NCBI GenBank assembly: GCA_000002445.1
Contig: CM000207.1
Span: forward strand, 1,152,001-1,216,000
Source of the DNA: Trypanosoma brucei
Taxonomy: Eukaryota
Length of the DNA: 64,000 nucleotides
Reading direction: 5' to 3'
Below, one piece after another: positions 3,341-18,752 of this stretch. Within the stretch, counting starts at the first letter, position 1. The number at the start of each line of letters is the position of its first letter. Position numbers and translations under genes: made by a program. Under the pieces are notes generated by a model. The model made no database searches and was not told the DNA's origin. It saw nothing but the letters and a program-made list of their open reading frames with translations.

Positions 3341-5676
3341 ATTAATGCATTCAAGTAGTTCCCTTACCCGTATTTTTTTTTGATCCCCCTCAGACGCCTC
3401 ACATAATTCCTCATTTTCCATATTCTGATGGTCAGGGCAACAATAAACAAAATTAGTTCAGATAATATATCTTTTGACAACTTCACCCTCCCACCAACCA
3501 AATGAAAAAACATACATATATTTCTTTTAGTAATTTTTTTTGATACTTGATCTGACGTTATTGGTCCTTTTGTTAGCACTTCCATTATTATCTGTAGGCG
3601 GTTCCCCGCTTCTACAACACGTTTTGACATTACTGTAGTTTCGATAGTTTGCTATATATATAGCTATCATTTTGCTTTCCTTATCCAAACGCTCATATCA
3701 TGTTTCCAAAATTAGGTCTCGCCCATTCGGTCTCATACTTCAATTGACTCAAGTATAATCGTAATAATGTTCAGGGTTTGTGTGCACGTAGCGCGGTTCG
3801 TTTGGCATCTTTGCTTTTCCGGATTTCACAGCAACAACTTCAAAGCCTCTATTTATTTCAACTTGAAATGGTCACGAATTTTATTCACTATTTATTTTCG
3901 TTTCTCTTCCCTTTGCTTTTCCTGTCCTCAACTTTCATTGCTCTCCATAGGTGCGAGTGGTTCATTTCCATAGCATCGAAGTTATCCACCTCAGTTAAAT
4001 TCTAAAGTAGAAAAACACATTGCCTCTCCGTTCCTTCCATCTCGTTTTCTGGTCTTATGCGCTAGCGTTTTTTTTATTTTCTTCATTGACGTTGAAAATT
4101 AAAAATATATGTATTAATGATGGAATGGCTTATAAAGCAACAAAAATAAGAATATCCATGGAGACCGCGAATTTATTTCGGCGAAACTCCTTTGTTCTTC
4201 TGGTGGTCTTGTCGTAGTTCCAGTGGTTTCTGTAGCTGTGGCGCTTGTAGTTGTTTGTGTATTTGTATTTCCATTTTTTTGTGGTTCGCCTGATCCCTTG
4301 GTTGGTGAGTTTTCCCTTGGGCTTCGCTTCGTCCGTGTATTTGTGTTAGTGTCTGTCTCTGTGCTTGTGGTTGTAGTAGCCGCTGTGTCGGCGTCTGTGA
4401 TTGCATTTTTGCTCATTTCTTCGACCCTCTCCACCAGGTCCTCGAGCTCACTGAGCCATTTGATGCCTCTTGTACTGTCTTGATTGGGTCTCTTCGGATA
4501 CATCACACAAATGCCATTGGTTTGTGTTTCCTGTCCATCGCAGACATTTGGCTCGCTAACTTCGTTCCCTCCGTAGGTGTAGTACCTGCGCCCACTTGAG
4601 CCTTTGCGTTTTTTTATGCCCGTCTCGAGGCGTTTTCTCTTATCTTGAAACTCAGTCCTCGTTGGTGGAACACCAATACGTCCACTTTCGCACTTATTTT
4701 GTAGTTCGCTCCATGTATTTTTGTGGTTGCTTGAGCTTCTCCATGTTTGAGAAATATATCGTTCCTTGTTTCCAGTGTAACAGAGGTCTCCGGGTGGTGA
4801 CGTTCCGTCTCTTCCTTCGCACAAACAAATAAGATCTTTTACAAGTGCCTCTCCTGCTAAGGAAACTCGTCCACCACTGTCCTGTCCGCAGTCCATTTCT
4901 CTGTATCGTTTCCATCCGATTTCATTCACATTTTCAGCATTTGCCCCAAACAATATATCATTAACCTTTTTCTGTAGAGAAGCCACATTTACTGCCGACT
5001 TTCCTTTCAACTGTAGTGACGAGTTTATTCGTTGTGTTAAACTAACAAATCCACATAACGTTTTGAACTCCTCTTCATTAACGATGGTTCCTCCTGCAGT
5101 AGTTGCAAGAGCCAAAGACACACCCACAATTAATCCCAGTGACTCCTTCCACATTTTCATTAACATTCCTTCAATTACCTTCCTTAAAGGAGAACACAAA
5201 CAACGAAAAAAAACCATATGCCTCCATCTTCATTCCCAAATAAATCGTACACGTAACCCAATCAATAACACTTTTACCTGGAAAACCTCCTTTTATTTTC
5301 GGTGCACTGAATTGAATTGAAGGGAACTGCATCTCTTGCGGAGCATGTGTCCCGTTTCCTTTTTTAAGCATCATAAAGGATGGGAGATACGCAATTAACA
5401 CGTTAATGCACATACACCAAACATAATCCTCTTTCCATTACCTCTGCTAATACCCTTCAAGCAAAGGCAAGAAAAAACTTGCTATTCTAACACAATAATT
5501 AACTATATCTGTCTTGATAGCACCTTACACGTGAATACTAGAAGCTGAATAATCATGCATTATTATCCTCACTCTCCGGAGAGCAGTAAAAAGGGCCATC
5601 AAAAGAACTCAAAGGTAGAAACCCGAATAGTCAAGCGTTAGAATTTTCGATTCCTCCTCAAAAGTTGTGCTAACAG
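3341..5676. repeat. Copy A of a 2.3 kb segmental duplication (copy B at 16417..18752, offset 13,076 bp). Near-perfect identity from about 3395 onward and about 80% over the first 55 bp.
   Basis: Direct comparison of the two stretches. All ORFs in the track inside the block are identical in both copies. The only difference I could find is t4468 vs a17544 (Arg->Ser in the 367-aa protein). Identity breaks at 5676/18752 ('taacag|cact' vs 'taacag|tatt'). Confidence 0.9.
4114..5217 (-). CDS. VSG-superfamily-like / VSG-related surface glycoprotein (367-aa ORF; probable true start at Met22, coordinate 5154, giving signal peptide MWKESLGLIVGVSLALATTAGG). It has a Thr-rich stalk (TTTTSTETDTNTNTRT...TNTQTTTSATATETTGTTT) and a hydrophobic C-terminus.
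   Basis: Long ORF. It carries N-terminal 'EEFKTLCGF' and 'DLICLC' motifs that are shared with the paralogs at 6886..8031 and 10219..11637 and resemble the VSG/ESAG N-terminal domain. Several N-x-S/T sites, a Thr-rich C-terminal region and a hydrophobic tail are present. It is duplicated at 17190..18293. Confidence 0.75.
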   Translation of the reverse strand: MVFFRCLCSPLRKVIEGMLMKMWKESLGLIVGVSLALATTAGGTIVNEEEFKTLCGFVSLTQRINSSLQLKGKSAVNVASLQKKVNDILFGANAENVNEIGWKRYREMDCGQDSGGRVSLAGEALVKDLICLCEGRDGTSPPGDLCYTGNKERYISQTWRSSSNHKNTWSELQNKCESGRIGVPPTRTEFQDKRKRLETGIKKRKGSSGRRYYTYGGNEVSEPNVCDGQETQTNGICVMYPKRPNQDSTRGIKWLSELEDLVERVEEMSKNAITDADTAATTTTSTETDTNTNTRTKRSPRENSPTKGSGEPQKNGNTNTQTTTSATATETTGTTTRPPEEQRSFAEINSRSPWIFLFLLLYKPFHH

Positions 5677-16416: not shown

Positions 16417-18752
16417 ATTAATGCATTCAAGCCTTTCCCCTACCCGTGGTTCTTATGATCACCCCTCAGACACCTCACATAATTCCTCATTTTCCATATT
16501 CTGATGGTCAGGGCAACAATAAACAAAATTAGTTCAGATAATATATCTTTTGACAACTTCACCCTCCCACCAACCAAATGAAAAAACATACATATATTTC
16601 TTTTAGTAATTTTTTTTGATACTTGATCTGACGTTATTGGTCCTTTTGTTAGCACTTCCATTATTATCTGTAGGCGGTTCCCCGCTTCTACAACACGTTT
16701 TGACATTACTGTAGTTTCGATAGTTTGCTATATATATAGCTATCATTTTGCTTTCCTTATCCAAACGCTCATATCATGTTTCCAAAATTAGGTCTCGCCC
16801 ATTCGGTCTCATACTTCAATTGACTCAAGTATAATCGTAATAATGTTCAGGGTTTGTGTGCACGTAGCGCGGTTCGTTTGGCATCTTTGCTTTTCCGGAT
16901 TTCACAGCAACAACTTCAAAGCCTCTATTTATTTCAACTTGAAATGGTCACGAATTTTATTCACTATTTATTTTCGTTTCTCTTCCCTTTGCTTTTCCTG
17001 TCCTCAACTTTCATTGCTCTCCATAGGTGCGAGTGGTTCATTTCCATAGCATCGAAGTTATCCACCTCAGTTAAATTCTAAAGTAGAAAAACACATTGCC
17101 TCTCCGTTCCTTCCATCTCGTTTTCTGGTCTTATGCGCTAGCGTTTTTTTTATTTTCTTCATTGACGTTGAAAATTAAAAATATATGTATTAATGATGGA
17201 ATGGCTTATAAAGCAACAAAAATAAGAATATCCATGGAGACCGCGAATTTATTTCGGCGAAACTCCTTTGTTCTTCTGGTGGTCTTGTCGTAGTTCCAGT
17301 GGTTTCTGTAGCTGTGGCGCTTGTAGTTGTTTGTGTATTTGTATTTCCATTTTTTTGTGGTTCGCCTGATCCCTTGGTTGGTGAGTTTTCCCTTGGGCTT
17401 CGCTTCGTCCGTGTATTTGTGTTAGTGTCTGTCTCTGTGCTTGTGGTTGTAGTAGCCGCTGTGTCGGCGTCTGTGATTGCATTTTTGCTCATTTCTTCGA
17501 CCCTCTCCACCAGGTCCTCGAGCTCACTGAGCCATTTGATGCCACTTGTACTGTCTTGATTGGGTCTCTTCGGATACATCACACAAATGCCATTGGTTTG
17601 TGTTTCCTGTCCATCGCAGACATTTGGCTCGCTAACTTCGTTCCCTCCGTAGGTGTAGTACCTGCGCCCACTTGAGCCTTTGCGTTTTTTTATGCCCGTC
17701 TCGAGGCGTTTTCTCTTATCTTGAAACTCAGTCCTCGTTGGTGGAACACCAATACGTCCACTTTCGCACTTATTTTGTAGTTCGCTCCATGTATTTTTGT
17801 GGTTGCTTGAGCTTCTCCATGTTTGAGAAATATATCGTTCCTTGTTTCCAGTGTAACAGAGGTCTCCGGGTGGTGACGTTCCGTCTCTTCCTTCGCACAA
17901 ACAAATAAGATCTTTTACAAGTGCCTCTCCTGCTAAGGAAACTCGTCCACCACTGTCCTGTCCGCAGTCCATTTCTCTGTATCGTTTCCATCCGATTTCA
18001 TTCACATTTTCAGCATTTGCCCCAAACAATATATCATTAACCTTTTTCTGTAGAGAAGCCACATTTACTGCCGACTTTCCTTTCAACTGTAGTGACGAGT
18101 TTATTCGTTGTGTTAAACTAACAAATCCACATAACGTTTTGAACTCCTCTTCATTAACGATGGTTCCTCCTGCAGTAGTTGCAAGAGCCAAAGACACACC
18201 CACAATTAATCCCAGTGACTCCTTCCACATTTTCATTAACATTCCTTCAATTACCTTCCTTAAAGGAGAACACAAACAACGAAAAAAAACCATATGCCTC
18301 CATCTTCATTCCCAAATAAATCGTACACGTAACCCAATCAATAACACTTTTACCTGGAAAACCTCCTTTTATTTTCGGTGCACTGAATTGAATTGAAGGG
18401 AACTGCATCTCTTGCGGAGCATGTGTCCCGTTTCCTTTTTTAAGCATCATAAAGGATGGGAGATACGCAATTAACACGTTAATGCACATACACCAAACAT
18501 AATCCTCTTTCCATTACCTCTGCTAATACCCTTCAAGCAAAGGCAAGAAAAAACTTGCTATTCTAACACAATAATTAACTATATCTGTCTTGATAGCACC
18601 TTACACGTGAATACTAGAAGCTGAATAATCATGCATTATTATCCTCACTCTCCGGAGAGCAGTAAAAAGGGCCATCAAAAGAACTCAAAGGTAGAAACCC
18701 GAATAGTCAAGCGTTAGAATTTTCGATTCCTCCTCAAAAGTTGTGCTAACAG
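16417..18752. repeat. Copy B of the 2.3 kb segmental duplication (copy A at 3341..5676).
   Basis: See copy A. Offset is 13,076 bp with a single observed SNP. Confidence 0.9.
17190..18293 (-). CDS. Duplicate copy of the VSG-related-like 367-aa surface glycoprotein. It differs from 4114..5217 by one residue (Ser vs Arg in '...DSTSGIKW').
   Basis: 1104-nt ORF identical to 4114..5217 except a17544 vs t4468. The probable start is 18230. Confidence 0.75.
   Translation of the reverse strand: MVFFRCLCSPLRKVIEGMLMKMWKESLGLIVGVSLALATTAGGTIVNEEEFKTLCGFVSLTQRINSSLQLKGKSAVNVASLQKKVNDILFGANAENVNEIGWKRYREMDCGQDSGGRVSLAGEALVKDLICLCEGRDGTSPPGDLCYTGNKERYISQTWRSSSNHKNTWSELQNKCESGRIGVPPTRTEFQDKRKRLETGIKKRKGSSGRRYYTYGGNEVSEPNVCDGQETQTNGICVMYPKRPNQDSTSGIKWLSELEDLVERVEEMSKNAITDADTAATTTTSTETDTNTNTRTKRSPRENSPTKGSGEPQKNGNTNTQTTTSATATETTGTTTRPPEEQRSFAEINSRSPWIFLFLLLYKPFHH

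Follow-up and report, generated by a model that had tools for sequence, protein, structure and literature searches.

The window analysed here, a 64,000-nucleotide (nt) stretch of Trypanosoma brucei brucei TREU927 chromosome 9 (a record of 3.06 Mb), contains a chromosome-internal island of variant surface glycoprotein (VSG) and ESAG genes downstream of a nucleoside transporter gene. Two VSG-related (VR) genes of this island, Tb09.160.5440 and Tb09.v1.0290, lie about 13 kb apart in blocks of almost identical DNA, which we denote copy S and copy R, respectively. On the evidence of cross-strain alignment, this near-identity is very probably the outcome of gene conversion within an old pair of VR paralogues. 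The genes of the window are all on the minus strand and, in order of transcription, the island comprises flank A, VR copy S, ESAG9-288, ESAG2, ESAG11, VR381 (a divergent VR gene), spacer E, VR copy R and ESAG9-258 (Table 1).

Aligned base by base at an offset of 13,076 bp, the two copies match over 2,280 bp (3397–5676 and 16473–18752) with one mismatch, an identity of 99.96% within TREU927; chance cannot yield an exact match of 2.28 kb. The sole mismatch, T at 4468 versus A at 17544 on the plus strand, falls in codon 250 of a 367-amino-acid (aa) open reading frame (ORF), which reads AGA (Arg) in copy R (4114–5217) and AGT (Ser) in copy S (17190–18293). An earlier sequence-only reading of this stretch had described a duplicate with this one nonsynonymous difference and a sharp right edge, and the alignment bears out each of these points, with identity stopping at 5676/5677. 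Its block began at 3341; the block holds from 3397, and a further 14 mismatches lie in 3356–3396, in what the reading had taken for a decay zone of about 55 bp. Its estimates of about 460 bp of 5′ flank and 770 bp of 3′ flank agree with the 459 bp and 773 bp that we measure around the 367-aa ORF in the block as first drawn, although the actual 5′ flank probably measures about 510 bp, because the homologues begin at Met18 or Met22 of that ORF. A complete VR transcription unit lies within the block, with its 5′ flank, its coding sequence (CDS) and the greater part of its 3′ flank. Within the first 26 kb of the window, self-BLAST detected no long repeat other than the VR block. Weaker homology runs on leftward to 2903/15980; left of the block the copies are 61% identical at the DNA level in the spacer and 51% in the body of the downstream gene, and right of 5712 their flanks are unrelated.

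To place the two copies in a wider context, we compared them with the syntenic region of Trypanosoma equiperdum IVM-t1, represented by two retrieved stretches merged into 34 kb that contain no N. This region has the same gene order, with its VR genes (P0004 and P0005) exactly 13,000 bp apart. The upstream flanks are position-specific: flank A of copy S matches that of the first IVM-t1 VR block (B1), and spacer E of copy R matches that of the second (B2), and therefore positional orthology between TREU927 and IVM-t1 holds. Overall, B1 and B2 are 84–89% identical. In 150-bp windows, their identity is 53–72% in the region encoding the N-terminal domain and reaches 99% in two patches, one covering the 5′ flank and the start of the CDS (alignment columns 300–600) and the other the C-terminal region (columns 1350–1500); elsewhere it is 53–89%. 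These two patches look like independent partial conversion tracts. Because IVM-t1 carries two diverged VR genes 13 kb apart, the duplication appears to be old and the identity in TREU927 a later homogenization. Consistent with this, the TREU927 paralogues (99.96%) are closer to each other than to their positional orthologues in IVM-t1 (about 83% for the VR block against either copy, with 97–100% in flank A), and copy R is only 53–90% identical to its counterpart B2. Codon 250 is AGA in B2, as in copy R, and a different codon in B1. Among the explanations that the sequence-only reading had left side by side (recent duplication, conversion or artefact), the cross-strain comparison favours conversion of an old duplicate and speaks against recent duplication.

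A second comparison comes from T. equiperdum OVI, whose genome was assembled de novo (Velvet, k = 33, followed by SSAKE), with the reference used for annotation only. The OVI contig CZPT02000054.1 (4,483 bp, no N) corresponds to window positions 18069–13589 at 99.84% identity, with no differences within the VR block (18069–16473), the Ser codon and an identical ESAG9-288 protein. A second contig, CZPT02000542.1 (1,386 bp), corresponds to 3428–2043 at 99.78% and ends 32 nt inside the block, which is k − 1 for k = 33, as expected for a graph branch at 3396/3397. In the scaffold CZPT02001459.1, flank A is present as far as 18753, a 654-bp piece is 100% identical to the TREU927 block, and a further piece links spacer E, with the 21-nt patch of copy R described below, to another VR allele, 87–88% identical. 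OVI therefore has a TREU927-type VR gene and the two downstream junctions; it also has an unconverted VR allele flanked by spacer E, which may represent a second haplotype. Both VR positions were thus occupied earlier, as B2 lies behind spacer E in IVM-t1 and the OVI piece joins spacer E to a divergent VR gene. Between positions 18148 and 21389, CZPT02001459.1 strings together two VR alleles for one region, the TREU927-identical one and the 87–88% identical one, which suggests heterozygosity or a collapsed repeat in OVI.

On the downstream side of the tract, a 57-nt transition zone begins with 16 identical nt (3340–3355), and all 14 mismatches, including a 1-nt indel and an A-run, lie in 3356–3396; left of 3340, copy R continues into a flank of the ESAG9-258 type and copy S into a module of the ESAG9-288 type. 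On the upstream side, identity ends about 36 bp short of the limit of the ancient paralogous homology, which in all four sequences starts at about 5712/18789 (cctAtaGGCTACGAT). Between these two points lie a 21-nt patch in copy R (5677–5697, against 18753–18774; 13 differing positions and one indel), where copy S matches both IVM-t1 copies, and the final 15 nt of the ancient homology (5698–5712, pairing with 18775–18789), beyond which spacer E faces flank A. The patch has no template elsewhere in the window. It is also found in OVI, and it is therefore older than the conversion event and not a by-product of it. Read on the gene strand, many of the changes in the patch are A-to-G or C-to-T. Because the identical stretch gives way to diverged or unrelated sequence at either end, it has the form of a non-reciprocal patch, as expected of gene conversion, and not of a single unequal crossover. 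The sequence-only reading had placed a tract boundary in the spacer between the VR and ESAG9 genes, and the cross-strain comparison indeed puts one end there; the pairing of the ESAG9 genes on which that proposal also drew is probably not correct, as described below.

Neighbouring genes help to set the relative age of the event. Second TREU927 copies of ESAG2 and ESAG11 (EAN76757 and EAN76756), just outside the window on its left, are 98.1% identical in aa sequence to those within it, and both genes are only 84–87% identical to those of IVM-t1. The two ESAG pairs differ at no fewer than 16 of 2,529 nt, compared with 1 of 2,280 nt in the VR block (Fisher P = 3.5e-4), and the VR identity would therefore stem from a younger, separate event. 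Copy S is the likely donor and copy R the likely recipient, because the TREU927 region encoding the N-terminal domain resembles that of position 1, being 85–89% identical to B1 and 53–58% identical to B2. At the protein level, the TREU927 VR product is 72–75% identical to position-1-type alleles of three other strains (72% to P0004), which carry a position-1-type signal peptide and N-terminal domain as the TREU927 gene does, and 61% identical to P0005.

We propose the following course of events. An old tandem pair of VR genes with a period of about 13 kb would have been common to other Trypanozoon genomes. On a TREU927-type haplotype, homologous recombination probably copied about 2.28 kb in recent times without reciprocal exchange, transferring a whole VR unit (the 5′ region with the splice acceptor, the CDS and some 700 bp of 3′ flank) from the transporter-proximal Tb09.160.5440 into the distal Tb09.v1.0290. 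Such an event would have erased a B2-type paralogue that elsewhere is only about 60% identical at the protein level. The tract would have stopped where the similarity of the partners drops, at the 21-nt patch upstream and the indel-containing 57-nt zone downstream, so that its ends were presumably set by loss of homology. The R250S difference could be a mutation that followed the conversion or a site that was left unconverted.

Several observations weigh against conversion of an old pair and lend substance to its rivals. The 98%-identical second copies of ESAG2 and ESAG11, which differ so much from those of IVM-t1, could indicate that a recent segmental duplication by unequal crossing-over, with a unit of at least 13 kb, made both VR genes together with these ESAG copies, and that the ESAG9 modules and spacers were later replaced in a patchy manner, leaving the VR block as the best-preserved remnant. 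The chromosome 9 passages of Jackson et al. 2010, in which an atypical VSG is duplicated with an ESAG indel, point the same way. We nevertheless consider this improbable: IVM-t1 already has two VR genes spaced at this 13-kb period, whose flanks correspond position by position, a patch flanked on both sides by diverged or unrelated sequence is impossible by a single crossover, and the VR block is significantly less diverged than the ESAG2 and ESAG11 pairs. A third VR donor, from another part of the genome or from a mating partner, might instead have overwritten both positions independently. Such a donor is made possible by the distance of about 17% between the TREU927 block and both IVM-t1 copies (dS, the synonymous divergence, 0.33) and would also accommodate the mosaic nature of the block, some segments of which are closer to B2 than to B1. 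It is very unlikely all the same, as it calls for two events with almost equal boundaries in place of one, as the position-1-type features of the TREU927 gene, in the signal peptide and the N-terminal domain, recur in alleles from three other strains, and as no third identical or near-identical VR protein appears among the database matches, in which the next TREU927 VR proteins are 47% identical.

The remaining concerns bear on the assemblies. The ‘Tb09.v1’ locus tags span exactly the interval from VR copy R to ESAG9-288, which suggests that the 13-kb unit entered the reference in a later version of the assembly and that the region is hard to assemble. The VR gene could then have been duplicated when the unit was inserted into a collapsed region, or two haplotypes could have been placed in tandem, with the single-nucleotide polymorphism (SNP) being allelic or an error; one difference in 2.3 kb would fit heterozygosity or a consensus error. 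In addition, the hybrid assembly of IVM-t1 has low coverage in long reads and its chromosomes were ordered on TREU927, scaffold CZPT02001459.1 is fragmented by N gaps such that the OVI alleles are assigned to positions by deduction, and the independent support for copy R amounts to 32 nt in OVI, short of the Arg variant and of the phasing of the SNP. The TREU927 window itself, however, has no Ns, and both copies have unique sequence on either side, forming four junction types (flank A to VR, VR to ESAG9-288, spacer E to VR and VR to ESAG9-258) that require two VR copies. IVM-t1 shows the same gene order and period, and another OVI piece holds the upstream junction of spacer E with a VR gene. 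Because the independent de novo OVI contigs reproduce copy S, its Ser codon in linkage with ESAG9-288 and both downstream junctions, an assembly artefact is unlikely, and we rate it far below gene conversion, at about the level of the third donor.

The genes downstream of the two copies appear to have a different history from the VR block. The small genes with a Cys motif that the sequence-only reading had noticed are ESAG9 genes according to the source annotation (EAN76760); Pfam has no ESAG9 model. The locus tag of ESAG9-288 is presumably Tb09.v1.0330. The two proteins, for which the same reading had estimated 45–50% identity, are 31% identical by BLASTP over 262 aa, and their DNA is 51–61% identical. 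It had further presumed them to be partners duplicated together with the VR genes long ago. In IVM-t1, an ESAG9-258-type flank follows both B1 and B2, with the ESAG9 CDS deleted behind B2, and this arrangement tells against that view: divergence of one ESAG9 pair in situ is probably not how the two genes arose. Because both IVM-t1 VR copies precede a flank of the ESAG9-258 type, the ESAG9-288 module behind copy S would represent a separate cassette replacement.

The products of the two VR genes match the TREU927 proteins EAN76761 and EAN76766, annotated as ‘variant surface glycoprotein (VSG)-related, putative’, at 100%. The 367-aa glycoprotein of the sequence-only reading can thus be named more closely as the product of a VR gene. 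It contains the b-type N-terminal domain of VSGs (Pfam PF13206 VSG_B, E = 1.6e-34), and no Trypan_glycop_C match, that is, no canonical VSG C-terminal domain, was found at E ≤ 1. When a low-confidence structural model (predicted local distance difference test score (pLDDT) 56.6) was compared with the PDB using Foldseek, the top 22 matches were all class-B VSGs, including VSG11, VSG3, mVSG1954 and VSG615. With up to three mismatches allowed, the 16-mer of the VSG 3′ untranslated region (UTR), TGATATATTTTAACAC, is absent from the window, block edges included, as is, in a limited test, the conserved core of the 70-bp repeats, GAGTGTTGTGAGTGTGTG. The locus thus shows none of the hallmarks of a canonical switchable VSG cassette, namely 70-bp repeats, conserved 3′ elements and a subtelomeric or expression-site context. 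VR genes have been reported to occupy internal sites and to lack 70-bp repeats (PMC2771046), and the two 367-aa genes are bona fide members of this family.

Within the ORF, the first 17 codons (MVFFRCLCSPLRKVIEG; 5167–5217 and 18243–18293) lie upstream of the start in all homologues, which begin with MLMKMWKE or MWKE. The annotated start is therefore probably too far upstream, with the true start at Met18 (5166) or Met22. At the other end, the frame and extension of the hydrophobic C-terminal tail (4114–4170 and 17190–17246) differ among alleles: the tail reads WIFLFLLLYKPFHH in TREU927 and LIFFCGFISHSIINIHFLKC in the alleles that other strains carry at position 1, and P0005 has WIFLFLLFV. Given this variation, some alleles may not retain a functional signal for a glycosylphosphatidylinositol (GPI) anchor.

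Comparison with known systems places the VR pair among processes that have largely been described. According to summaries (PMC2771046, PMC2854126 and PMC3605285) of Marcello & Barry 2007, VR genes share with the two copies the VSG_B domain and an internal location, together with the missing 70-bp core, 3′ UTR 16-mer and C-terminal domain match; nothing sets the two copies apart from the family, as which both are annotated. Higher expression in bloodstream forms has been reported, and in a published microarray ‘Tb09.v1.0290+1’, a probe set common to two genes, was 4.2-fold higher in bloodstream forms. Tandem arrays of T. brucei undergo concerted evolution by gene conversion, and copies with different flanks escape homogenization (Jackson 2007, PMC1855330). 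As in those arrays, and in the PGK chimaera cited in the same paper, the paralogues within a genome are far closer than orthologues between strains and the tracts take in flanking UTR sequence. In contrast to them, the VR partners are not arranged head to tail but lie 13 kb apart with five genes between, and what was erased would be a diverged paralogue (about 60% aa identity) in place of a near-identical dosage copy. The pair likewise resembles duplicative conversion of VSG cassettes in that a VSG-family gene was copied non-reciprocally with its flanks as a cassette of about 2–3 kb; however, the block edges lack 70-bp repeats and conserved 3′ elements, and the target is not an expression site, such that the change would be of a germline type, fixed in the haplotype, and not a switch.

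The passages of Jackson et al. 2010 (PMC2854126, Fig. S1) that concern the chromosome 9 island describe a segmental duplication in T. b. brucei with an atypical VSG and an ESAG indel, and this island is probably the present locus. In the same passages, such islands are considered not to be exposed to frequent conversion; here, by contrast, conversion tracts are visible in two lineages, TREU927 and IVM-t1. As both island duplication and array conversion have been published, the VR pair is an ordinary and largely anticipated instance of a known process, and the current picture of trypanosome genome dynamics, in which conversion among surface-gene paralogues is expected in T. brucei, is unchanged. 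There are nonetheless practical consequences. Tb09.v1.0290 and Tb09.160.5440 are indistinguishable in expression, RNA interference (RNAi) and mapping data, a distinct VR paralogue retained by other strains has been lost from TREU927, and VR/ESAG islands are less static than stated earlier.

A broader interpretation concerns the divergence of the unit between strains. The VR unit differs by about 17% between strains, compared with 1–3% in the flanks, and is mosaic between the two positions; in these alignments, the 2.3-kb unit thus appears as a deeply diverged, mosaic module within well-conserved flanks. Positive selection on the protein alone does not explain this divergence, as the VR CDS gives a ratio of nonsynonymous to synonymous divergence (dN/dS) of 0.4–0.5, with dS = 0.33 and dN/dS = 0.5 between TREU927 and B1, and divergence between strains is equally high in the coding and non-coding parts of the block. 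Conversion tracts extend over the full length of the unit in TREU927 and occur as two short tracts, independently, in IVM-t1. We raise, as a tentative and on balance doubtful idea, that the VR genes of this island serve as exchangeable cassettes, with the 2.3-kb unit including the UTRs. If so, recurrent conversion of ‘invariant’ VR loci would yield strain-specific surface variants without 70-bp repeats, at odds with the published conclusion that frequent conversion does not reach islands of this kind.

Other features of the locus complete the picture. Several housekeeping genes share the strand of the island at distances of no more than 30 kb: those for a nucleoside transporter, a calpain-like peptidase, adenylosuccinate lyase, RPL11 and ARF. 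The spacers of the window contain no pseudogene fragments of the island gene families, Rfam matched nothing in the window and the database search returned no close homologue of VR381. In T. b. gambiense, no chromosome 9 counterpart was recovered: the VR match P0006 in FN554968.1 belongs to another, non-syntenic VR/ESAG island, and a search with the transporter returned no separate T. b. gambiense orthologue. Flank A, which separates the nucleoside transporter from the first VR gene, is a gene-free stretch of 6.8 kb. Within it, 21600–25000 is very low in GC (26% at 22–24 kb) and rich in A/T, (TAA)n, (CA)n and poly-purine repeats, and may mark a transcription boundary ahead of the VSG/ESAG island. 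At the opposite end, positions 1–1480, downstream of ESAG9-258, have no counterpart in the 34-kb IVM-t1 locus or in the rest of the window; at this place IVM-t1 skips to the equivalent of window position 14048, and the segment reads as a strain-specific insertion or rearrangement.

Table 1 Features of the VR/ESAG island, in window coordinates
Feature	Position	Strand	Basis or remark
ESAG9-258 (258 aa, EAN76760), downstream of copy R	2308–3084	minus	Annotation; OVI contig 99.8%
Downstream transition zone	3340–3396 (pairs with 16416–16472)	minus	57 nt, alignment
Copy R, near-identical block, likely recipient	3397–5676	minus	1 difference from 16473–18752
VR gene Tb09.v1.0290 (EAN76761), 367-aa ORF, Arg250, copy R	4114–5217	minus	VSG_B, annotation
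Single difference in the tract	4468 (pairs with 17544)	minus	AGA Arg versus AGT Ser, codon 250
Upstream edge	5677–5712	minus	21-nt copy-R patch and last 15 nt of ancient homology
Remainder of the 13-kb unit between the copies	6886–11637	minus	VR381, ESAG11 and ESAG2
Divergent VR gene, 381 aa (VR381), Tb09.v1.0300	6886–8031	minus	Annotation
ESAG11	8935–10050	minus	Annotation
ESAG2	10219–11637	minus	Annotation
ESAG9-288, downstream of copy S	15379–16164	minus	261 aa from ATG, 288 aa from upstream GTG
Copy S, near-identical block, likely donor, VR copy nearest the nucleoside transporter	16473–18752	minus	Alignment; IVM-t1 and OVI matches
VR gene Tb09.160.5440 (EAN76766), 367-aa ORF, Ser250, copy S	17190–18293	minus	Annotation; Ser codon also in OVI
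Nucleoside transporter	25062–26450	minus	Upstream of flank A

The window holds a second homogenized duplicate, arranged head to tail. Two tandem ribosomal protein L11 (uL5-like) units of 1,264 bp (43445–44708 and 44824–46087; period 1,379 bp) are 99.76% identical, with three mismatches, and both encode the same 196-aa product.

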